Origin: Escherichia coli
Lineage (GTDB): Bacteria > Pseudomonadota > Gammaproteobacteria > Enterobacterales > Enterobacteriaceae
Assembly: GCF_003991155.1 (NCBI RefSeq)
Contig: NZ_CP031293.1
Length of the DNA stretch: 64,000 nucleotides
Strand: one strand, 5' to 3'
Both the position numbers and the translations under genes were made by a program. The notes under the pieces were generated by a model, which worked only from the letters and a program-made list of their open reading frames with translations, searched no databases and was not told where the DNA came from. This document shows, piece by piece, positions 1,057 through 64,000 of this stretch. Positions within the stretch are counted from its first letter, which is position 1. Each line of letters opens with the position of its first letter.

Positions 1057-2748
1057 ATGAGATACATCAAATCGATTACACAGCAGAAGCTGAGCTTTTT
1101 GCTTGCAATCTATATTGGCCTTTTTATGAATGGCGCGGTTTTTTACCGCCGCTTCGGCAGCTATGCGCACGATTTTACCGTCTGGAAAGGTATTTCTGCT
1201 GTTGTTGAACTGGCCGCCACCGTACTGGTGACCTTCTTTTTACTGCGTCTTCTTTCGCTGTTTGGCCGCCGCAGCTGGCGTATTCTGGCATCGCTGGTGG
1301 TGCTCTTTTCCGCAGGTGCCAGCTATTACATGACCTTCCTTAATGTAGTCATTGGTTATGGCATCATCGCATCCGTCATGACCACCGATATCGACCTGTC
1401 AAAAGAAGTTGTTGGTCTGAACTTTATTCTCTGGTTAATCGCCGTAAGCGCGTTGCCTCTTATCCTTATCTGGAATAACCGCTGTCGTTACACCTTGCTC
1501 CGACAACTGCGAACCCCAGGGCAGCGTATTCGCAGCCTGGCGGTCGTCGTACTGGCAGGTATTATGGTTTGGGCACCGATTCGTTTGCTGGATATCCAGC
1601 AGAAGAAAGTGGAGAGGGCGACAGGTGTTGATTTGCCGAGTTATGGCGGCGTCGTCGCGAACTCTTATCTGCCATCAAACTGGCTTTCGGCATTAGGTCT
1701 TTATGCCTGGGCGCGGGTCGATGAATCTTCCGATAACAATTCTCTCCTTAACCCTGCGAAGAAGTTTACGTACCAGGCTCCACAAAACGTTGATGATACA
1801 TATGTCGTTTTCATTATTGGTGAAACCACGCGCTGGGATCATATGGGCATTTTCGGCTATGAACGCAATACCACACCGAAACTGGCTCAGGAGAAAAATC
1901 TGGCGGCGTTCCGTGGTTACTCCTGTGATACTGCAACCAAACTCTCACTGCGTTGCATGTTTGTACGTCAGGGTGGAGCAGAAGATAATCCGCAGCGCAC
2001 ATTAAAAGAACAGAACATTTTCGCGGTATTGAAGCAGTTAGGATTCAGTTCTGATCTCTACGCTATGCAAAGCGAAATGTGGTTCTACAGCAATACGATG
2101 GCGGACAACATTGCTTATCGTGAGCAGATTGGTGCGGAGCCACGTAACCGTGGCAAACCGGTAGATGATATGTTGCTGGTAGACGAAATGCAGCAGTCGC
2201 TGGGGCGCAACCCGGATGGTAAGCATCTGATCATTCTGCATACCAAAGGCTCACACTTTAACTACACCCAGCGTTACCCGCGCAGCTTTGCGCAGTGGAA
2301 GCCGGAATGTATTGGTGTTGATAGCGGCTGTACCAAAGCGCAGATGATCAACTCATACGACAACTCGGTGACCTATGTGGATCACTTTATTTCCAGCGTG
2401 ATTGATCAGGTTCGCAATAAGAAAGCGATTGTGTTCTATGCAGCTGACCACGGTGAGTCAATTAATGAACGCGAGCACCTGCACGGCACGCCGCGTGAAC
2501 TGGCACCGCCGGAACAGTTCCGTGTGCCGATGATGGTCTGGATGTCGGATAAATATCTGGAAAATCCGGTCAATGCGCAGGCATTTGCGCAGCTGAAAAA
2601 AGAAGCCGACATGAAAGTGCCACGCCGTCACGTAGAGCTGTACGACACCATCATGGGGTGTCTTGGCTATACTTCACCTGATGGTGGAATTAACGAAAAC
2701 AACAACTGGTGTCACATCCCGCAGGCAAAAGAGGCAGCGGCTAACTAA
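1057..2748 (+). CDS. eptB: Kdo2-lipid A phosphoethanolamine transferase EptB
   Basis: ORF 1024..2748; the product from the ATG at 1057 ([16 protein letters not shown]...) matches the recalled 563-aa EptB N-terminus; sulfatase-like C-terminal domain. Confidence 0.9.
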
Positions 2749-2798
2749 GAGGTCTGCTGACTTTCTCGCCGATCAAAAGGCATTTTGCTATTAAGGGA

Positions 2799-2827
2799 TT
2801 GACGAGGGCGTATCTGCGCAGTAAGAT
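2799..2827 (+). promoter_or_regulatory. Putative sigma70 promoter of proK (TTGACG, 17-bp spacer, TAAGAT, GC-rich discriminator)
   Basis: Hexamers read directly from the sequence about 12 bp upstream of the mature tRNA 5' end. Confidence 0.45.
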
Positions 2828-2839
2828 GCGCCCCGCATT

Positions 2840-2916
<77 letters not shown>

Positions 2917-2925
2917 AATTCGAAA

Positions 2926-2952
2926 AGCCTGCTCAACGAGCAGGCTTTTTTG
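2926..2952 (+). terminator. Rho-independent terminator after proK
   Basis: AGCCTGCTC-AAC-GAGCAGGCT hairpin followed by TTTTTT. Confidence 0.8.
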
Positions 2953-3006
2953 CATCTGTAACTCATGAGGAAGAGAACCTCCGGGGGCGGGGAGGTTCGA
3001 CTCGAC

Positions 3007-3092
3007 GTAGGCCTGATAAGACGCGCCAGCGTCGCATCAGGCAAATGTACCGGCCCATTGTCGGATGCGGCGCGACCGCCTTATCCGATCTA
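3007..3092. repeat. Pair of REP (repetitive extragenic palindromic) elements
   Basis: GTAGGCCTGATAAGACGCGCCAGCGTCGCATCAGGC and GTCGGATGCGGCGCGACCGCCTTATCCGATCTAC match the REP consensus. Confidence 0.7.
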
Positions 3093-3619
3093 CACACCAC
3101 ACATTTCCCTGCCAAATTTGCGCCCCATATCTCACTATCCATTAACGGATTTGTGACAGAAACCATTGTCTTTTTTTATATTTGCTTAAATCTTTTTTTG
3201 CGTTACTTATGGCTGGCGCTGGCATTTTCCGCTGTGCGTTTTAGCGTTCATGGTATTAATCGCTCAGATATCCACCTTTACCTCAGATTTTTTTCATTAA
3301 ATGCATAAAACTTAATCACCAAATGTTGCTAAATATTAAGCTGATTGTTCTGGTTGTGTTGGCGTAGCACAAATTTCTCTGCTGCAAATAGCTGTTTGAA
3401 GTTTTTTTAATCTTTGTTTGTGGATTCTCACCGTTGGTGTAAATCCCGGTTGGCTGTATTGACGTTTTCACATTCTGTTGACAGATTGTAGGTCACGAGG
3501 GGCATTTTATGGAGGATCCGCACTGTTACACTGATGTTAATTAGTACGGCATCCCCACCTCATAACGTTGACCCGACCGGGCAAAAAACAAAAAAGGTCA
3601 GGCAGCGACAACCCACTGC

Positions 3620-10645: not shown

Positions 10646-11002
10646 AAAGTCCTGTCCAGAAAGAAGTCGGCCTCGCAAAAATGAATAAACCCAGTTTCTC
10701 TTGCGCAACAGGTGGAGAAGTCGAATACGCAGTATGTAAAAAATGAGGCAACAGATTCACTGGGGAGGTCGCGAGGAGGCGCAATTCTACAAAATTGCGC
10801 ATTTCACTACCAGTCTGGAGTCAGCCCGGATATGAACTGCAACTATTGCAAATAAAGAAATTAAGCTGGAATGCATCACGCAATGAGGAAGATTGCCGGG
10901 TGCTGACGGTAAAAAGCAATCGTAGAATCAGCGGCAAGCCGGAAAGGTTCCGGTGAGGCGCAATGTTGCGGGGGCTTAATCCCTGGTGGCATTGGTTGCT
11001 GG

Positions 11003-11072
11003 AGAGAGAAAACCCCCGCACGTTGCAGGTATGCACCTGACAACATCACGGGGGCTAATCTTGAACCTAGAC
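11003..11072 (-). ncRNA. rdlD: Rdl antisense antitoxin RNA, copy 1
   Basis: Minus-strand sequence GTCTAGGTTCAAGATTAGCCCCCGTGATGTTGTCAGG...CGTGCGGGGGTTTTCTCT matches the recalled RdlD sequence and ends in a terminator hairpin; ends approximate. Confidence 0.6.
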
Positions 11073-11120
11073 CACTCAAGAATAGCCGCGAAACGTTGTC
11101 ATTACAACACAGGCGGCTAT

Positions 11121-11228
11121 ATGACGCTCGCAGAACTGGGCATGGCCTTCTGGCATGATTTAGCGGCTCCGGTCATTGCTGGCATTCTTGCCAGCATGAT
11201 CGTGAACTGGCTGAACAAGCGGAAGTAA
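11121..11228 (+). CDS. ldrD: Type I toxin Ldr (35 aa: MTLAELGMAFWHDLAAPVIAGILASMIVNWLNKRK), copy 1
   Basis: 35-codon ORF at the 3' end of the repeat; peptide matches the recalled Ldr family sequence. Confidence 0.85.
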   Translation: MTLAELGMAFWHDLAAPVIAGILASMIVNWLNKRK

Positions 11229-11278
11229 CGTGTCAGACGGGCGTCAGGCTGCGGTAATGGCAATTTGCGCCCGGACCA

Positions 11279-11310
11279 GGCCGCAGGGATAAAACTCTGC
11301 GGCCTTTTTC
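11279..11310 (+). terminator. Rho-independent terminator of ldr copy 1
   Basis: GGCCGCAG / CTGCGGCC stem followed by TTTTT. Confidence 0.7.
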
Positions 11311-11485
11311 GTAAGAAAAAGGCAACGGTTGCAAGCGGATAATATTCTGCGGAATGGACAGCACAGAGTGAAGAAGTGACGGATTCCGGAACAGAAAAAC
11401 AGTCGTAGAATCAGCGGCAAGCCGGAAAGGTTCCGGTGAGGCGCAATGTTGCGGGGGCTTTATCCCTGGTGGCATTGGTTGCTGG

Positions 11486-11555
11486 AGAGAGAAAACCCCC
11501 GCACGTTGCAGTTATGCACCTGACAACACCACGGGGGCTAATCTTGACTCTAGAC
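11486..11555 (-). ncRNA. Rdl antisense antitoxin RNA, copy 2
   Basis: Paralogous to copy 1 with a few substitutions; ends approximate. Confidence 0.6.
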
Positions 11556-46759: not shown

Positions 46760-47497
46760 TTTTTGCGGATGCAAGCCAAATTCAAGTGGATAAGTGTGTT
46801 GAGAATTTCGTATTAGTTTCAAGAGACACGCTTTCATTATTTCTCCCGATGCTCAAGGAGGAGGCATTAAAACTTCATGCACATAAAAAAGCTCCTTCAT
46901 TACTCGTTCATCACTGTATCAGAGATATTCCTGTTTTTCAGGAAGTTGCGCAACTGTCGCAGAATAAGAATCTTCGCTATGCAGAAATGCTACGTAAAAG
47001 GGCATTAATCTTTGCGTTGTTATCTGTTTTTCTTGAGGATACGCAGTTTATACCGTTACTTCTGAACGTGTTGCAACCGAATATGCGAACACGAGTTTGT
47101 ACGGTCATCAATAATAATATCGCCCATGAGTGGACATTAGCCCGAATCGCTAGCGAATTGTTGATGAGTCCAAGCCTGTTAAAGAAAAAATTGCGCGAAG
47201 AAGGTACGTCATATTCACAGTTGCTTACTGAGTGTAGGATGCAGCGTGCTTTACAACTTATTGTTATATATGGGGTTTCAATTAAGCGAGTTGCAGTATC
47301 CTGTGGATATCACAGCGTGTCGTATTTCATTTACGTTTTTCGAAATTATTATGGGATGACGCCCACAGAGTATCAGGAGCGATCGGCGCAGGAATTACCG
47401 AACTGTGGCCCGGCGGCAAGTATAGCTGCGCAAGGGAATTTTTACGGCACTGACCGTTCTGCGGAAGGAATAAGATTATAGAGTTTTACTCAGACAT

Positions 47498-47603
47498 AAA
47501 AAAAACCCGGCATAGGGGACCGGGAAGAGGATAGTCTGCCGTCTCCAGACTAATAAACCGTTATAACACTCCCTGTTGGCACGGGAAACTTTGTGCTCTC
47601 AGT
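47498..47603 (-). ncRNA. gadY: GadY small RNA
   Basis: Minus-strand sequence ACTGAGAGCACAAAGTTTCCCGTGCCAACAGGGAGTGTTATAACGG...CCTATGCCGGGTTTTTTTT matches the recalled GadY sequence and ends in a terminator. Confidence 0.8.
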
Positions 47604-47849
47604 AAGTTAAATATAACTTTTACTGGAAATAAGATCAGCCATTTTTTTATAAACATAAGCTATACGCTGTGCGAAAATATATTCGTGTTGCATTTACTTA
47701 TTGTCAATTAACTGTTATGCAAAACTACTTTGTGGATAAATTTTGGTCCTACCAAATCTGGCAGTTTTTGCGCTAAGAAACAGTCTGGCATCATTTCATT
47801 AGTATACTGAAATTGAAATAATCGCAGTAATGAAATATAAGGGATAGTC

Positions 47850-48578
47850 ATGACTCATGTCTGCTCGGTGATCCTCGTTCGTCGTTCATTCGATATTTAT
47901 CATGAACAGCAAAAAATATCGTTGCATAACGAGAGTATCCTGCTGCTGGATAAAAATTTGGCAGACGATTTTGCGTTTTGTTCACCGGATACACGACGAC
48001 TGGATATCGATGAGCTGACAGTTTGCCATTACTTACAAAATATTCGTCAGATACCACGCAATTTAGGGTTACATAGCAAAGACCGTCTGTTAATTAACCA
48101 GTCACCCCCCATGCCGCTGGTGACGGCGATTTTTGATAGTTTCAATGACTCCGGGGTAAATTCGCCGATACTGAGCAAAATGCTCTATCTTTCCTGTTTA
48201 TCGATGTTTTCTCATAAGAAAGAACTGATCCCCTTACTTTTCAATAGTATCAGTACTGTTTCAGGAAAAGTTGAACGCCTTATTAGCTTTGATATCGCCA
48301 AACGTTGGTATCTGCGCGATATTGCGGAAAGAATGTATACCAGCGAGAGTCTCATCAAAAAAAAGTTGCAGGATGAAAATACCTGTTTCAGTAAAATATT
48401 ACTCGCCTCCAGGATGTCGATGGCCAGACGATTACTCGAGTTACGTCAAATTCCTCTGCATACTATTGCGGAAAAATGTGGCTATAGCAGTACGTCGTAC
48501 TTTATAAACACATTTCGACAATATTATGGTGTAACACCACATCAGTTTGCGCAACATTCGCCAGGTACCTTTTCCTGA
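47850..48578 (+). CDS. gadW: AraC-family acid-resistance regulator GadW
   Basis: 242-aa ORF with C-terminal AraC HTH; position between gadX and mdtF. Confidence 0.9.
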   Translation: MTHVCSVILVRRSFDIYHEQQKISLHNESILLLDKNLADDFAFCSPDTRRLDIDELTVCHYLQNIRQIPRNLGLHSKDRLLINQSPPMPLVTAIFDSFNDSGVNSPILSKMLYLSCLSMFSHKKELIPLLFNSISTVSGKVERLISFDIAKRWYLRDIAERMYTSESLIKKKLQDENTCFSKILLASRMSMARRLLELRQIPLHTIAEKCGYSSTSYFINTFRQYYGVTPHQFAQHSPGTFS

Positions 48579-48940
48579 CATATTTTGCATTTGAATATTG
48601 GTCAGGATCTCACACCTGCTTCATGTGAAACTCTTCCCTGATGATTTCTGCCGGGCTACCGGCTAGTTCTCTTTCGCAGTTTGCCAGGCGGTATAGGTAT
48701 TTTCAGGAGGAAAAGACTCGGCATGTTTGGGATTATTAAGCTGACAATTCATACGATTACGGGAATGTGGGTCAGTATTGTGCTGTTCAAATTGATGACG
48801 AATGGCTGGAGTGGTTTCTACTTTCAGTGCTGTGTACTAAGCCTGGTATTCCTGACGGTTAGCTGGTTGTTGAGTGGTGAATGGTTAGCAGGAAAGAGTA
48901 AGGCTGAACCTTCACGTTCAACCTTACTCTCATTTACACG

Positions 48941-51900
48941 TTACGCTTTTTTAAAGCGGGCAAAGAGATGTTCCACTACAACGAAAAAGACCGGAACAAA
49001 GTAAATTGCCAGCACTGTTGCGGCAAACATCCCGCCCATTACGCCGGTACCTACCGCGTTTTGCGCGCCAGAACCGGCACCATGACTGATAACCAGCGGC
49101 AGCACGCCGAGAATAAAGGCCAGAGAGGTCATCAGGATTGGGCGTAAACGCATTCGCGCCGCTTCGATGATCGCCTCTATCGGCGTTTTCCCTTCTTTCT
49201 GCATCATCTCAACGGCAAATTCGACAATCAGGATGGCGTTTTTGGCGGAAAGCCCGATGGTGGTCAGCAAACCAACCTGGAAGTAGACGTCATTACTTAA
49301 GCCGCGTAGATCGGTGGCCAGTAATGCGCCAACGACGCCTAACGGAACAACCAACATCACCGAGAACGGAATTGACCAGCTTTCATAAAGTGCGGCGAGG
49401 GCGAGGAACACCACGACCAGTGAAATGGCATATAGCGCGGGAGCCTGGTTTGAGGATAACGCTTCCTGATACGACAGTCCGGTCCATGAGTAGCCGACGC
49501 CAGCCGGAAGTTTAGCGACCAGGTCTGCCATAAATTTCATGGCGTCACCGGTACTTTTCCCGGCCGCCGCTTCACCTAAAATCTCCATTGACGGGATGCC
49601 GTTGTAGCGTTCCAGTCGCGGTGAACCATAGGTCCATTCGGTAGACGAGTAGGCAGAAAGCGGTGCCATCGTGCCAGAGGCGTTGCGTACATACCATTGG
49701 TTGATGTTATCCGGCAACATACGGAACGGCGTGCCTGCCTGGACATACACTTTTTTCACCCGCCCCTGGTTGAGGAAGTCGTTCACGTAGCTGCTGCCGA
49801 AGGCGGTGGAAATTGTCTGGTTGATATCAGACAGCGCCACGCCCATAGCCTCGGCTTTCGCAGCGTTGACGTTCACTTTGAACATCGGCGTATCTTCCAG
49901 GCCGTTCGGGCGAACCCCGGTGACCTGATTCGGTGATTGCGCTGCCAGTGATAACAGCTCGTTTCGCGCCTGGGTTAGTTTTTCGTGCCCCAGGTTACCG
50001 TTGTCCAGCAGTTCCATATCAAAACCTGACGCGGTACCCAGTTCAGCCACCGCGGGTAAGTTGAACGGGAAGACGACGGCTTTATTGATACTGCTTAGCG
50101 CAATCATTGCCCGCTGAATAATCGCGGTAACCGAGTTTTCCTCGCCGACACGTTCAGACCACGGCTTGAGGCTGATAAACGCCAGACCGTTGTTTTGCCC
50201 CTGACCACTGAAGCCAAAGCCACCAACGGTAAACACCGACTGAACATTATTTTTCTCTTTTGTCAGATAATAATCCGTCACCTGTTGTAGCACTTTCGTG
50301 GTGTTAACCATGGTGGCACCGGAAGGTAACTGCGCGGTGGTCATAAATACCCCCTGATCCTCTTCTGGTAAGAAAGAGGTCGGCGTGCGCAGGAACAGCA
50401 CCGCCATCCCGGCGCAAATCAGGAGGTAGACCACCATGTAGCGACCGGTACAACGCAACAGCGAGCGGGTGCTATCGGTATAGTGCTGAGTTGATTTTTC
50501 AAACAGCGTGTTGAAGCGTGCGAACAGGGCGTTAGGTTTATGACCGCCTTCCGGCGCGGCTTTCAGAATGGTGGCGCACAGGGCAGGGGTCAGGCTCATT
50601 GCTACAAATACTGAAAGCAGCATGGAGGAGATCAGCGTGATGGAGAACTGGCGGTAGATCTCCCCGGTCGCACCGCTCATAAAGGCCATCGGCATAAACA
50701 CTGCGGAAAGAACAACGGCAATCCCGACCAGCGCACGTTGGATCTGCCCCATCGATTTATGCGTCGCTTCCTTCGGCGGTAGCTTATCTTCCGCAATGAC
50801 ACGCTCGACGTTCTCCACCACCACGATGGCGTCATCCACCAGTAACCCTATCGCCAGCACCATCCCGAACATAGTTAACGTGTTGATGGTGAAACCGACC
50901 GCCGACAAGATCGCAAACGTCCCGAGAATAACCACCGGTACGGCAATCGTCGGGATGATTGTGGCGCGGAAATTCTGCAAAAACAGATACATGACCAGGA
51001 AGACGAGGATGATAGCCTCAACCAGCGTTTTGAAAACTTCCTGAATAGAAATTTTGATAAACGGTGTGGTGTCGTAAGGATAAACCGTCTTCAGGCTTGC
51101 GGGGAAATAGGCTGATAAACGGTTCAGCTCCTCTTTCACCGCTCGCGAGGTATCCAGGGCGTTTGCTCCGGTAGCCAGTTTGATGGCGATCCCGGCAGCA
51201 GGTTTGCCGTTATAGCGCGCCACGGTGGAATAATCTTCCGCCCCAAGTTCGACGCGGGCGACATCACGCAGCAGCACTTGCGAACCATCTTGCTGAACTT
51301 TCAACAGGATTTTGCCAAATTCTTCCGGCGTTTGCAGACGCGTCTGCACAATGATCGAGGCGTTCAGTTGCTGGTCTGCCGCCTGTGGCATGCCACCCAG
51401 TTGACCACCGGAAATCTGGTTGTTTTGCACCTTAATCTGGGAAATAACATCGGAAGGTACCAGGTTATATTTATTGAGTTTTTGCGGGTCCAGCCAGATA
51501 CGCATGGCGTACTCGGAACCAAAGAGCTGTACGCTACCAACGCCCGCGGTACGGCTTAGCGGGTCTTTGATATTAGACGCTACATAGTCGGCGATATCGT
51601 ACTGGTTGAGGCTGCCGTTATCAGAAATAAACGCCGCTACCATCAGGATATTACTGCTCGACTTATCGACGCTAATCCCCTGCTGCTGCACCGCTTCAGG
51701 TAATGAAGGCATAGCGAGTTGCAGTTTATTTTGCACCTGAACCTGTGCGATATCAGGCGATGTCCCAGTCTCGAAGGTCAGAGTAATAGAGGCATTACCC
51801 GCCGCATCACTGGTTGAAGACATGTACATCAGGCCATCAAGCCCATTCATATTTTGCTCAATCACCTGAGTGGCCGAGTCTTCTACCGTTTGCGCATCGG

Positions 51901-53236: not shown

Positions 53237-53574
53237 TTTAGTCCCTGAAAATTCTTGAGAAATAACGGTTCTTTAAATTGCGCGCGAGGAGAGATATGAG
53301 GGATTTACAGACCAGCGGCATAGTGGGGTTGTCAGCCAGTAAGATGGGATGCAAGCACAGTGATCGACATGGTGAGGTCAACGACAAAAAAAATGTTGCC
53401 GTTCTGCCAACAGTTTCTGCCAGCATTCGGGCAACGAAGGGTTCTACTGGTGGATACACATACCAGGGGAATAAAGTCGTTTTCGTCTCTCCTTCAATAA
53501 TCACCGGGGGTATTGAAATCAGCATCTGCATCCCTCGTCATGCCAGCCATCAATTTCAGTTGCTTATGTCCTTA

Positions 53575-57212: not shown

Positions 57213-57263
57213 TCTGTATAGTTATTTATTCGCAGGAGTACCAGTGCGGTACTCCTGTTGGTT

Positions 57264-58034
57264 TTAATGATCGAGGACGATCAGTGGTGAATGGTTGGCA
57301 GGATCTTTAAGTACGGTAATATCCGCGCCGTAGAGCATGGTCAGCGCCTGCTGTGTCAATACGTCCTGCGGCTTACCATTTGCGATAACCTTTCCTTTTT
57401 GCATTAATACAACACGGTCTGCATAACGCGCGGCAAGATTTAGATCGTGCAATACGCAACAAACATTGAACTGCCGTTCGTGAACTAACTGGCGTAATAA
57501 ACGAAACAAGTGCTGCTGATGGTGAATATCCAGCGCCGAAGTTGGTTCATCAAGAAATAACCATTTCGGTGAGGGAGTAGGTTCCCAGAGTTGTACCAGC
57601 AGGCGCGCTAATTGCACGCGCTGTTGTTCACCACCGGATAATTGCCGATAGTCGCGGTTTGCTAACGCCTGACAGTCACATAACGCCATTATTTGTGCTG
57701 TTTCATTATCCTGATTACCAGTGCGATGCGGATGCCGCCCCATCTGGATAACTTCTTGTACGCTGAATGGAAACGCCATGTGGCTATTTTGACGCATCAC
57801 GGCCCGGTGTTTCGCCAGTTCAGTAATCGACCATTCATTTAATGGCTTATTAAACAACCGACATTCGCCGCTATCAGGTTGAAGATAGCCGGTTAGCTGG
57901 CGAAGCAGCGTAGATTTTCCCGCACCATTAGGGCCGAGGATGGCAACAATTTCCCCACCGGGAAAAGTCAGCGAGACATTATCAGTCAGACGCCGCCCCT
58001 GAAGGCTATAAACCAGATTCTGGGCGCTGATCAT
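57264..58034 (-). CDS. chuV: Haemin ABC transporter ATPase ChuV (ShuV/HmuV)
   Basis: Start placed at [16 protein letters not shown]... (256 aa), overlapping the chuU stop (ATGA); Walker [10 protein letters not shown], signature LSGGEQQR. Confidence 0.85.
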
Positions 58035-59023
58035 GTGATCCTCCGGTTGCGCAGAATCAACCACATAAAATAAGGGCCACCAAGCAGGCTGGTTAATAAT
58101 CCCACGGGCATTTCTGCTGGCTGTACCAGCGTGCGGGCAAGCGTGTCTGCCATCAGCAATAAACAGGCTCCGGCGAGGGCGGAACAAGGGATTAGCCAGC
58201 GGTGATTTGCCCCGGTAGTCATGCGAATCAGATGCGGGATCACCAGGCCAATAAAGCCGATAATGCCGCTTACCGATACGGCAGCACCAACGAGCAGTGA
58301 GCTCACTAACAGTAATTGCTGGCGTTTACGCTTCACGTTCACGCCGAGGTAGTGGGCTTCTTCATCACCGAGCTGCAGTAAATTCAGCGTTCCGGCGAGA
58401 CAAGTTGTTGCGATAATGGCCGGTAGGATGAATGAACTGGCAACCAATAACGTCGGCCATTGCGCCTGTCCAAGATTGCCCATCATCCACAATGTGAGTT
58501 GTCGTAGCTGCTGCTCATCGCCGATATAGCTCAGGATGCCGATCGCTGCGCCGCACAGGGCATTGATGGCGATACCGGCGAGTAATAATTGCATCATGCT
58601 GCCATCGCGATGGCGCTGCGTGATGAGAAAAATGATGGTGCAGACCACTAAACTTCCGGCAATGGCAAACACCATTTGCTCATAGAGCACCAGCACCACT
58701 GGGAAGGAGAAGGGCAGCACAATAGCAACGCCAACCATTAATGCAGAACCGCTACTGACGCCAAGTAATCCAGGGTCAGCCATTGGGTTGCGAAAAAGCC
58801 CTTGCATAATTACCCCGGCGGTTGCCAACGCTGCACCTACCAGCACCGCCAGCAAAACCCGTGGTAGACGAATATTGAGCCAGATATCGCGGTATTCCTC
58901 ATCAAAAAGGGCATCAAAACTGATCTTTAACGCTCCCTGACTGGCACCAAACAGCACCAGAGCGAGCAATAATAGTGATAGCCCCATAAAGACCCTGGCG
59001 GAAGAGAGTGAATCCTTGAGCAC
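58031..59023 (-). CDS. chuU: Haemin ABC transporter permease ChuU (ShuU)
   Basis: 330-aa FecCD-family permease. Confidence 0.9.
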
Positions 59024-59071
59024 GCAAAACTCCGTTACGACATTACGGCGCGGACATACCGCGCCGGGGGA

Positions 59072-59695
59072 TCACGCCGGTTTCAGGTCCGGTTCAATCA
59101 GACTGTAGACCTGCTGGTTAAGTGCTGGCGCATTTGCCAGTTCATGGATATGTGCGGCGACATCGGCACGGTGAACAAAACCATGACACTCCTGATTTTG
59201 TATCCGTTGTGCTTTGCCCGTTGCCGCACCATCAAGCAGACCGCCAGGGCGGAGAATGGCATAATCAAGCTGGCTGGTTTGCAACCAGCTTTCCGCCAGC
59301 GTTTTTTCCCGTACCGCCTGACCAAACGCAGCCTTTGCCCGCTCTGATAAAAACGGCCAGCTATCGCCGCATCCCAAAGAGGTCACCAGAATCATGCGAC
59401 TGATGCCAGCCTTCTCGGCCTCGTCAATCACTGTTCTGTGCGCCAGATAATCCTGAGCTCCGCCCATTGTTGAGATGATAAGCGCATCCGGGCCAGCTGC
59501 GCGGCAAGCAGCCGCGACTACGCTGGCATCACAGGCGTCGCCTGTAAAAACCTTTACGCCTTGTTGCGCCAGTTTCGTGGCGGCATCAGCATGACGAATG
59601 ACAGCAACGACCGGACGTTGTTCCGCCAGCGCCAGTTCAAGCGTTCTGGCACCCACACCTTTTCCGCCTGCGCCAAAGAGTAGCCACGGCGTCAT
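59072..59695 (-). CDS. chuY: ChuY, NAD(P)-binding reductase of the haem-utilisation cluster
   Basis: 207-aa ORF with Rossmann-type N-terminus; conserved position between chuX and chuU. Confidence 0.8.
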   Translation of the reverse strand: MTPWLLFGAGGKGVGARTLELALAEQRPVVAVIRHADAATKLAQQGVKVFTGDACDASVVAAACRAAGPDALIISTMGGAQDYLAHRTVIDEAEKAGISRMILVTSLGCGDSWPFLSERAKAAFGQAVREKTLAESWLQTSQLDYAILRPGGLLDGAATGKAQRIQNQECHGFVHRADVAAHIHELANAPALNQQVYSLIEPDLKPA

Positions 59696-60189
59696 CAGGC
59701 GTGTTCCTTTAACGATGCTGCCAGAGCATGGAAGGCGCTGACCTGTTCGCTCAGGAGCTGACGATGGTCATCCCTGCCGAGGAAGATTTTCAGCATTGCG
59801 CTGCCTTCTTTGTTGAAAAAGAGAATGGATGCGGTGTCCATGCCCATAAATTTACGTTCGATCAAGGCAATATGTGTGCAGTTTTCTGCTTTGATATGCC
59901 CGGACATGCCGTGCTTTCCGCGTAGGTTGAAATAGCCGTGGCGGTGGAAACCCGAAGGCAGTTCGCCGCTAAATTCGAGGATGACATCGGCAGTATGTAC
60001 TAACGTGGTGACGTTGCCCCATTCGCAGACGGTATCCCAGACAGTATCGAATTTATCACCTGACACAACAGTCGGAGAGGGCAGATTTTTCACTACCTCC
60101 AGCAGCGTGGTGTTGTATTGTTCGGCGATCGCCTCCAGCGTACCGTCCGGCTCCGTTTTCAAAAATTCCTGTAACGAGACATGGCTCAT
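59695..60189 (-). CDS. chuX: ChuX, haem-utilisation carrier protein
   Basis: 164-aa ORF in the conserved position. Confidence 0.8.
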   Translation of the reverse strand: MSHVSLQEFLKTEPDGTLEAIAEQYNTTLLEVVKNLPSPTVVSGDKFDTVWDTVCEWGNVTTLVHTADVILEFSGELPSGFHRHGYFNLRGKHGMSGHIKAENCTHIALIERKFMGMDTASILFFNKEGSAMLKIFLGRDDHRQLLSEQVSAFHALAASLKEHA

Positions 60190-63124: not shown

Positions 63125-63156
63125 AGCATTTTTTATTTTCCTCATGGAGAATCGCT
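63125..63156 (+). promoter_or_regulatory. Candidate FourU-type RNA thermometer around the chuA Shine-Dalgarno
   Basis: U-runs (TTTTTTATTTTCC) directly 5' of CATGGAGA (the SD) could pair with it. A FourU thermometer in the shuA/chuA leader is established knowledge; the fold was not computed. Confidence 0.35.
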
Positions 63157-64000
63157 ATGTCACGTCCGCAATTTACCTCGTTGCGTTTGAGTTTGTTGGC
63201 TTTGGCTGTTTCTGCCACCTTGCCAACATTTGCTTTTGCTACTGAAACCATGACCGTTACGGCAACCGGGAATGCACGTAGTTCCTTCGAAGCGCCTATG
63301 ATGGTCAGCGTTATCGACACTTCCGCTCCTGAAAATCAAACGGCTACTTCAGCCACCGATCTGCTGCGTCATGTTCCTGGAATTACTCTTGATGGTACCG
63401 GACGAACCAACGGTCAGGATGTAAATATGCGTGGCTATGATCATCGCGGCGTGCTGGTTCTTGTCGATGGTGTTCGCCAGGGAACGGATACCGGACACCT
63501 GAATGGCACTTTTCTCGATCCGGCGCTGATCAAGCGTGTTGAGATTGTTCGCGGACCTTCAGCATTACTGTATGGCAGTGGCGCGCTGGGTGGAGTGATC
63601 TCCTACGATACGGTCGATGCAAAAGATTTATTGCAGGAAGGACAACGCAGTGGTTTTCGTGTCTTTGGTACTGGCGGCACGGGGGACCATAGCCTGGGAT
63701 TAGGCGCGAGCGCGTTTGGGCGAACTGAAAATCTGGATGGTATTGTGGCCTGGTCCAGTCGCGATCGGGGTGATTTACGCCAGAGCAATGGTGAAACCGC
63801 GCCGAATGACGAGTCCATTAATAACATGCTGGCGAAAGGGACCTGGCAAATTGATTCAGCCCAGTCTCTGAGCGGTTTAGTGCGTTACTACAACAACGAC
63901 GCGCGTGAACCAAAAAATCCGCAGACTGTTGAGGCTTCTGATAGCAGCAACCCGATGGTTGATCGTTCAACAATTCAACGCGATGCGCAGCTTTCTTATA
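63157..64000 (+). CDS. chuA: TonB-dependent outer-membrane haem receptor ChuA (ShuA), 5' portion; continues beyond the window
   Basis: Open frame from the ATG at 63157 (MSRPQFTSLRLSLLALAVSATLPTFAFA, TonB box ETMTVTA) to the window edge without a stop; SD GGAG 7 nt upstream. Confidence 0.9.
   Translation, partial: MSRPQFTSLRLSLLALAVSATLPTFAFATETMTVTATGNARSSFEAPMMVSVIDTSAPENQTATSATDLLRHVPGITLDGTGRTNGQDVNMRGYDHRGVLVLVDGVRQGTDTGHLNGTFLDPALIKRVEIVRGPSALLYGSGALGGVISYDTVDAKDLLQEGQRSGFRVFGTGGTGDHSLGLGASAFGRTENLDGIVAWSSRDRGDLRQSNGETAPNDESINNMLAKGTWQIDSAQSLSGLVRYYNNDAREPKNPQTVEASDSSNPMVDRSTIQRDAQLSY

Follow-up and report, generated by a model that had tools for sequence, protein, structure and literature searches.

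We conclude that gadY in the window (the whole 64,000-nucleotide stretch analysed here, from Escherichia coli contig NZ_CP031293.1 of assembly GCF_003991155.1) is very probably an ordinary copy of a small RNA gene conserved throughout the species, and that an IS1 element landed recently in gadX of an ST457-like genome. The intact state of gadY is explained by its distance from the insertion and by the recency of the event, which left too little time for neutral change in 114 nt. We see nothing in the sequence that argues against this account. An intact gadY is thus the expected outcome, and the locus tells us nothing new about GadY function.

IS1 is a 768-bp element with imperfect terminal inverted repeats of about 23 bp, and it generates target-site duplications of 8-9 bp. 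The window contains a complete element of this kind inside gadX. The features of the interrupted gene and its two neighbors on the same strand are (window coordinates):

44112 to 45512, plus strand: gadA (glutamate decarboxylase), intact, upstream of gadX; open reading frame and RefSeq annotation of the identical sequence
45815 to 45842, plus strand: promoter-like site upstream of gadX (TTGACT, a 16-nt spacer, and TACATT with TG), predicted by consensus scan only and still intact
45881 to 45982, plus strand: gadX 5' fragment, codons 1-34, 102 nt; read from the sequence, RefSeq pseudogene fragment
45975 to 45982, no strand: target-site duplication, left copy, 8 bp, GTGATCTG; read from the sequence
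45983 to 46750, plus strand: IS1 (IS1B type), 768 bp, with its transposase co-oriented with gadX; terminal inverted repeats, length, open reading frames and RefSeq
46751 to 46758, no strand: target-site duplication, right copy, 8 bp, GTGATCTG; read from the sequence
46759 to 47481, plus strand: gadX 3' fragment, codons 35-274 and the stop; an open frame with the whole AraC-type DNA-binding domain, its 3' UTR antisense to gadY
47850 to 48578, plus strand: gadW, intact, 242 aa; open reading frame, annotated as WP_000150006.1

The gadX gene starts at 45881 and the insertion follows nucleotide 102, at codon 32-34. The element is 768 bp long with terminal inverted repeats (ends GGTGATGCTGCCAACTTACTGAT and ...ATCAATAAGTTGGAGTCATTACC) and has two overlapping open reading frames, insA at 46038-46313 and the insB frame at 46232-46735. 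In RefSeq, the identical sequence is annotated as "IS1B family transposase, programmed frameshift" (insA and insB' joined by a -1 frameshift). We interpret the event as a simple transposition because GTGATCTG is present on both sides of the element and excision restores an intact natural gadX allele: removing IS1 and one GTGATCTG copy in silico gives an 825-nt open frame that encodes a 274-aa GadX. Both gadX fragments are pseudogene pieces in the RefSeq annotation of identical genomes. The disruption of gadX proposed in the first-pass annotation is therefore borne out by the 768-bp element with its 8-bp duplication, the fragments on either side and the RefSeq pseudogene calls. An IS1-mediated deletion or rearrangement in the clone was considered and ruled out, given that both fragments and the duplication are present and that excision restores the gene. 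An assembly artefact or a chance match was likewise rejected, as the junction occurs in 33 independent complete assemblies and the Rfam match to GadY has E = 8e-32.

The protein encoded by the gadX 3' fragment is 93% identical to K-12 GadX, and 17 of 242 residues differ. We rejected pseudogene decay as the source of this divergence; the identical allele is uninterrupted in genomes of other lineages outside the clone, so the 17 amino acid differences are allelic variation. RefSeq is inconsistent in its treatment of the broken gene. The 3' fragment is a pseudogene in most clone genomes, and CUVET19-1704 has a 249-aa "GadX" (WP_061092815.1) with a non-canonical start codon inside the IS1 end (window 46732-47481; positions 10732-11481 of locus L004). 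In strain DFK.1 a full-length 825-nt "gadX" is annotated whose 5' end is IS1 sequence (positions 2557-3381 of locus L008).

On the minus strand, gadY lies beyond the gadX stop codon, and its features are:

47498 to 47603, minus strand: gadY sRNA gene, the equivalent of the 106-nt K-12 GadY with its start site at 47603, placed by alignment to K-12
47498 to 47524, minus strand: gadY intrinsic terminator, a hairpin (CCCGGTCCCCTATGCCGGG) then eight T, from the terminator scan and the third hairpin of the fold
47604 to 47688, minus strand: gadY promoter and the sequence upstream of it, belonging to the divergent control region between gadY and gadW, about 80-85 bp identical to K-12

An Rfam scan of the whole window places the GadY family (RF00122) at 47606 to 47493 on the minus strand with 150 bits against a gathering score of 45 (E = 8e-32). 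The match covers model positions 1-114 of 114, and all bases agree with the family consensus. The terminator scan, which is independent of Rfam, finds the hairpin at 47524-47506 followed by a run of eight T. In DNA alignment, the RNA and its terminator are identical to K-12 (114/114), and the first K-12 difference upstream of the gadY start site is at 47689. The minimum-free-energy fold has the three consensus hairpins, with an energy z-score of -0.73 that is not itself significant. GadY, at 47603-47498, sits between the gadX stop codon (47479-47481, plus strand) and the gadW start (47850, plus strand). It overlaps the gadX 3' UTR in antisense, so that it is necessarily fully complementary to the sense strand. 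Its identification combines the covariance score over the full model, the gadX-gadW antisense position, the three hairpins with the terminator, and a promoter region identical to that of K-12. The earlier claim of an intact gadY and terminator on the minus strand stands on the full-length RF00122 match, the K-12 identity and the terminator scan, and the range then assigned, 47482-47603, is correct, extending from the first base past the gadX stop codon as far as the start site of GadY in the K-12 alignment. The element lies about 750 bp to 1.5 kb from gadY and leaves the gene, its promoter and its terminator untouched.

The gadY promoter was not picked up by a generic sigma-70 consensus scan, consistent with the RpoS-dependence described in PMC11230228. 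The promoter was characterised in K-12 in studies cited by PMC10057817 and PMC11230228. A promoter role for the upstream region, and binding of GadX and GadW there, is attributed to Tramonti 2008 (cited in PMC11300174).

The gene order gadA (+), gadX (+, interrupted), gadY (-), gadW (+), mdtF (-) matches the acid fitness island of K-12 seen from the opposite strand. Lineages differ greatly in the final ~35 codons of gadX, where nine differences from K-12 fall in about 50 bp (window 47380-47480). At the edge of the island, the chu/shu haem-uptake cluster comes right after yhiD, at about 57260-60000 and onward to 63159; K-12 presumably carries dctR and slp in its place. A chu/shu cluster in this position is typical of chuA-positive phylogroups. 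The Rfam scan of the window also predicts two rdlD antitoxin RNAs (11007-11072 and 11490-11555, minus strand), an ES205 sRNA (53386-53457, minus strand) just downstream of gadE, in its 3' UTR, an naRNA4 (3010-3090, minus strand), a tRNA (2840-2913, plus strand) and the chuA/shuA 5' UTR thermoregulator (63128-63159, plus strand).

The same IS1-gadX junction was found in 33 of 5,426 complete E. coli genomes. Over 24 kb, every one of the 33 carriers matches the window at 99.9% identity or better; the most similar genomes outside this set stop at 98.9%. In the 24-kb comparison, 14 of the carriers are identical, 11 have one mismatch, and the worst has a handful of changes. The window genome is identical over 24 kb to genomes of ST457, phylogroup F. 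Carriers MRY15-117 and MRY15-131 (PMC5430464) and carrier CREC-544 (PMC9860340) have been typed to this sequence type and phylogroup. The 33 carriers are one tight clone whose typed members are ST457, phylogroup F. Within ST457 fimH145, 1-2,427 pairwise SNPs were reported over 4.48 Mb (PMC9860340).

A natural empty site indicates how little has changed since the insertion. Once IS1 is excised, the window and strain TCM3e1, in which gadX is uninterrupted and annotated, agree at 100.000% across 5,742 bp; the identical stretch runs from the end of ccp through gadA, gadX, gadY and gadW into the start of mdtF. The 1,092 bp that span the gadX 3' part, gadY and the spacer are identical in at least 16 genomes outside the clone. 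By these comparisons, no substitution has arisen on the haplotype of the window since IS1 inserted, which bounds the age in relative terms (0 in 5.7 kb) rather than in years. Identity to TCM3e1 over the 5.7 kb (window 43483-49225) breaks off within mdtF, and TCM3e1 does not rank with the closest genomes when 24 kb are compared, so the region is a recombination mosaic. The empty-site haplotype is thus a proxy for the ancestor and not the ancestor itself, as it occurs in other genomic backgrounds. Of the two explanations that the first-pass annotation had offered for the undamaged gadY, a recent insertion is supported by the 5,742-bp identity to the empty site, by the 33 carriers at 99.9% or more over 24 kb and by the undecayed gadX fragments.

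The other explanation was that GadY has targets beyond gadX. The comparison across genomes with the same IS1 insertion, which had been proposed as a check, finds gadY conserved (114/114 identical in all 33 clone genomes) and has no power. For 24 of the 33, identity extends over the whole 1,092 bp; the other nine were established by an exact-pattern search. Outside gadY, the clone has three variable sites in 978 bp of flank:

47061, T>A: SX48, in the gadX 3' fragment, synonymous
47437, A>T: PK12, in the gadX 3' fragment, Asn>Tyr
47775, A>C: seven clone genomes, in the gadY-gadW spacer

The change at 47775 is carried by STEFF_1, STLIN_13, STLEFF_29, SWHEFF_69, WW2, CUVET19-1704 and UID2309220009 and marks a subclade; K-12 has A at this position, which precedes the gadW start codon by 75 nt and falls in the control region or leader of gadW. 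The broken gadX itself shows almost no decay: its 723 bp carry two private SNPs among the 33 genomes. From three sites in 978 bp, the neutral expectation for the 114-nt gadY is 0.35 changes, and the probability of seeing none, as we do, is about 0.7. The published maximum divergence of ST457 gives about 0.06 expected gadY differences between the two most distant members. With a recent insertion, undecayed gadX fragments and 0.35 changes expected, the undamaged gadY is uninformative on selection, and targets beyond gadX are not inferable from its retention. More generally, the intact neighbor of a broken gene becomes evidence of function only after enough time for neutral decay.

Across the species, gadY stands out by its very strong conservation, which is what a functional RNA should show, and very strong purifying selection on this stretch lies behind it in all E. 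coli. Of the 5,426 genomes searched with a 139-bp query around gadY, 5,412 have the gene, and 5,409 of these match at 99% identity or more. For the 1,092-bp query, most of which is the 3' half of gadX, identity is 95-99% in 3,652 genomes and 90-95% in another 1,371. In E. whittamii the mature GadY differs at 2 nt, against a GadX protein identity of only 82%. When species-representative genomes were scanned by pattern, GadY turned up in five Escherichia loci: those of E. whittamii and Escherichia sp. E1V33, and three from other Escherichia or E. coli representatives (L016, L017 and L023). The six remaining matches were judged to be chance hits in taxa that are not related. The exact pattern either missed E. 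albertii, E. fergusonii and Shigella, or these taxa have no representative of their own. Both gadX and gadW are intact beside gadY in three of the five loci, those of E. whittamii (L020), Escherichia sp. E1V33 (L021) and E. coli E69 (L017). In these three loci, the ones whose flanks were examined, there is no case of long-term maintenance of gadY without gadX.

The conserved element could in principle be the opposite strand, that is, the gadX 3' UTR with the gadX-gadW processing region and the upstream control of gadW, and gadY would then be intact as a by-product. The whole 368-bp gadX-gadW spacer (47482-47849) has just four differences from K-12 next to a variable end of the gadX coding region, and constraint is not assignable to one strand from sequence alone because both strands are the same DNA. 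We regard this explanation as extremely unlikely: across Escherichia species no part is better conserved than the GadY hairpins and terminator, and GadY is an experimentally characterised RNA bound by Hfq and CsrA (PMC5694010, PMC11230228).

The insertion in the ST457 clone is one of at least eight independent IS1 insertions that lie from -122 to +116 of the gadX start codon (about 240 bp) in 47 genomes among the 5,426 complete E. coli. Seven of the eight are co-oriented with gadX, and different IS1 subtypes are involved (window 45760-46000). The events are independent, since both the insertion points and the IS1 subtypes differ. Each number gives the gadX base that directly follows IS1, counted from the ATG:

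-122: fS25a and P470, with an upstream rearrangement
-81: TOE3
+15: DFK.1 and DFS.1
+51: FDAARGOS_1297 and FDAARGOS_1295
+79: AH04, CX12, CX08, AH02 and CT01
+95: the ST457 clone of the window
+116: E138
IS1 in opposite orientation at the gadX 5' end: strain 755

In two of the events IS1 sits ahead of the coding region, and gadX remains whole. The gadY RNA is 114/114 identical in all seven co-oriented events, the ones that were checked, and gadY and gadW are untouched in them. We raise tentatively, and with considerable doubt, the idea that the gadX 5' end and promoter are a natural IS1 hot spot or a selected target; the junction searches reach only to about nucleotide 116 of gadX and give no basis for a claim of clustering inside the gene. 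If selection and not target preference is responsible, E. coli lineages would be repeatedly removing GadX and keeping GadY and GadW, a pattern that, if true, would lend support from population genetics to roles of GadY independent of gadX. That gadX is seemingly hit repeatedly by IS1 in nature may be of modest use.

These lineages also bear on whether selection keeps gadY in a gadX-null clone through other targets, such as gadW on the bicistronic mRNA, Hfq-dependent trans targets of the sdiA type, or titration of CsrA. Roles of GadY that are independent of gadX have been published (PMC11230228, PMC5694010, PMC11300174, PMC10057817), and gadY is both near-invariant species-wide and exactly conserved in all seven lineages with a co-oriented IS1 in or just upstream of gadX. 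The clone is nevertheless without power on this point at 0.35 neutral changes, its gadX pseudogene fragments are preserved as well as gadY is, its haplotype equals the uninterrupted allele over 5.7 kb, and gadX is intact beside gadY in the three other Escherichia loci with flanks examined. We consider such selection in the clone very unlikely as the reason for an intact gadY, and prefer recent insertion beside an ordinary conserved gene. Functions of GadY beyond gadX are already established by direct experiments in the literature, and this locus adds no evidence for them. GadY pairs with sdiA mRNA (PMC11300174), has many Hfq-associated mRNA partners (PMC11230228), binds CsrA at high affinity, with titration proposed (PMC5694010), and has a role in biofilm formation (PMC10057817).

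We predict that GadY is still transcribed from its own stationary-phase promoter in the clone. The RNA is expected to be made because the promoter region is unchanged, GadW is intact, and further reported inputs to gadY, namely RpoS and ArcA (PMC11230228) and AppY (PMC10057817), are not gadX-dependent. GadW, which shares binding sites with GadX at gadY according to Tramonti 2008 as cited in PMC11300174, would be an activator still available. GadY may be down-regulated without GadX, or its level may be altered by loss of the cis partner. Activities of GadY that are independent of gadX (Hfq-dependent pairing, for example with sdiA, and CsrA binding) would be unaffected.

According to PMC5694010 and PMC11230228, the cis target of GadY is the gadX-gadW bicistronic mRNA, with full-length pairing followed by RNase III cleavage. 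The mechanism described in the first-pass annotation, pairing with the gadX 3' UTR and processing that stabilises gadX mRNA, is correct as far as it goes but incomplete, since the target includes gadW, which is intact here. It was also proposed that the partner of GadY can now only be a truncated or IS1-derived transcript, and this is a reasonable expectation. In addition to the gadX promoter-like site, a consensus scan predicts a promoter-like site in the IS1 left end (45990-46017) that points into the gadX 3' fragment. Sense transcripts from 45815-45842 or 45990-46017 would have to cross the 768-bp IS1 and about 730 nt of untranslated gadX. The perfectly complementary partner of GadY would now be only the tail of an untranslated gadX'::IS1 transcript together with any read-through into gadW. 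The consensus scan found no hybrid outward promoter at the right IS1-gadX junction.

IS1 insertions are strongly polar. Polarity probably reduces sense RNA at the region complementary to GadY, as transcripts cross IS1 and untranslated gadX, the right junction has no promoter-like site, and the 3' fragment has neither a canonical start codon nor a ribosome-binding site.

It is also conceivable that gadX is not null, and that a truncated GadX with the DNA-binding domain is made by read-through and internal initiation, with an altered GadY-gadX partnership that persists. The gadX 3' fragment stays open for 242 codons, includes the full AraC-type C-terminal domain and has an in-frame GTG at 46786; both promoter-like sites are directed into it, and RefSeq annotates a 249-aa "GadX" in one clone member. 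Reading the sequence from the stop at 46690-46692 to 46786, we found no canonical start codon, and neither the in-frame GTG nor the first ATG of the fragment is preceded by a Shine-Dalgarno sequence. A truncated protein would lose 34 N-terminal residues, the IS1-gadX junction has no promoter-like site, most RefSeq annotations call a pseudogene, and IS1 polarity is general knowledge. A functional truncated GadX is therefore unlikely in our judgment. The ST457 clone, naturally gadX-null, gadY-plus and gadW-plus, may be of modest use as a background for testing GadY phenotypes that do not depend on gadX.

Compared with K-12 GadY (b4452; RF00122), the window has an identical RNA, terminator and proximal promoter. 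In both, GadY is antisense in the gadX-gadW spacer, a few bases past the gadX stop, with gadA, gadX, gadW and mdtF as neighbors. Only the context differs: here gadX is split by IS1 and is a divergent natural variant (93% protein identity). Loss of gadX caused by an insertion sequence is already known from laboratory evolution, where benzoate-evolved K-12 W3110 acquired gadX::IS5 (bioRxiv 10.1101/063271). As in the clone, simple transposition with a target duplication inactivated gadX, and the rest of the acid fitness island is intact in the gadX::IS5 cases; the benzoate-evolved K-12 strains are described with gadX::IS5 together with gad island deletions (bioRxiv 10.1101/063271). The laboratory cases arose under defined selection, whereas none is known for the ST457 clone. 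Unlike the gadX::IS5 strains, the clone carries IS1, and its insertion is an event in nature that became fixed in a globally sampled clone (33 complete genomes).
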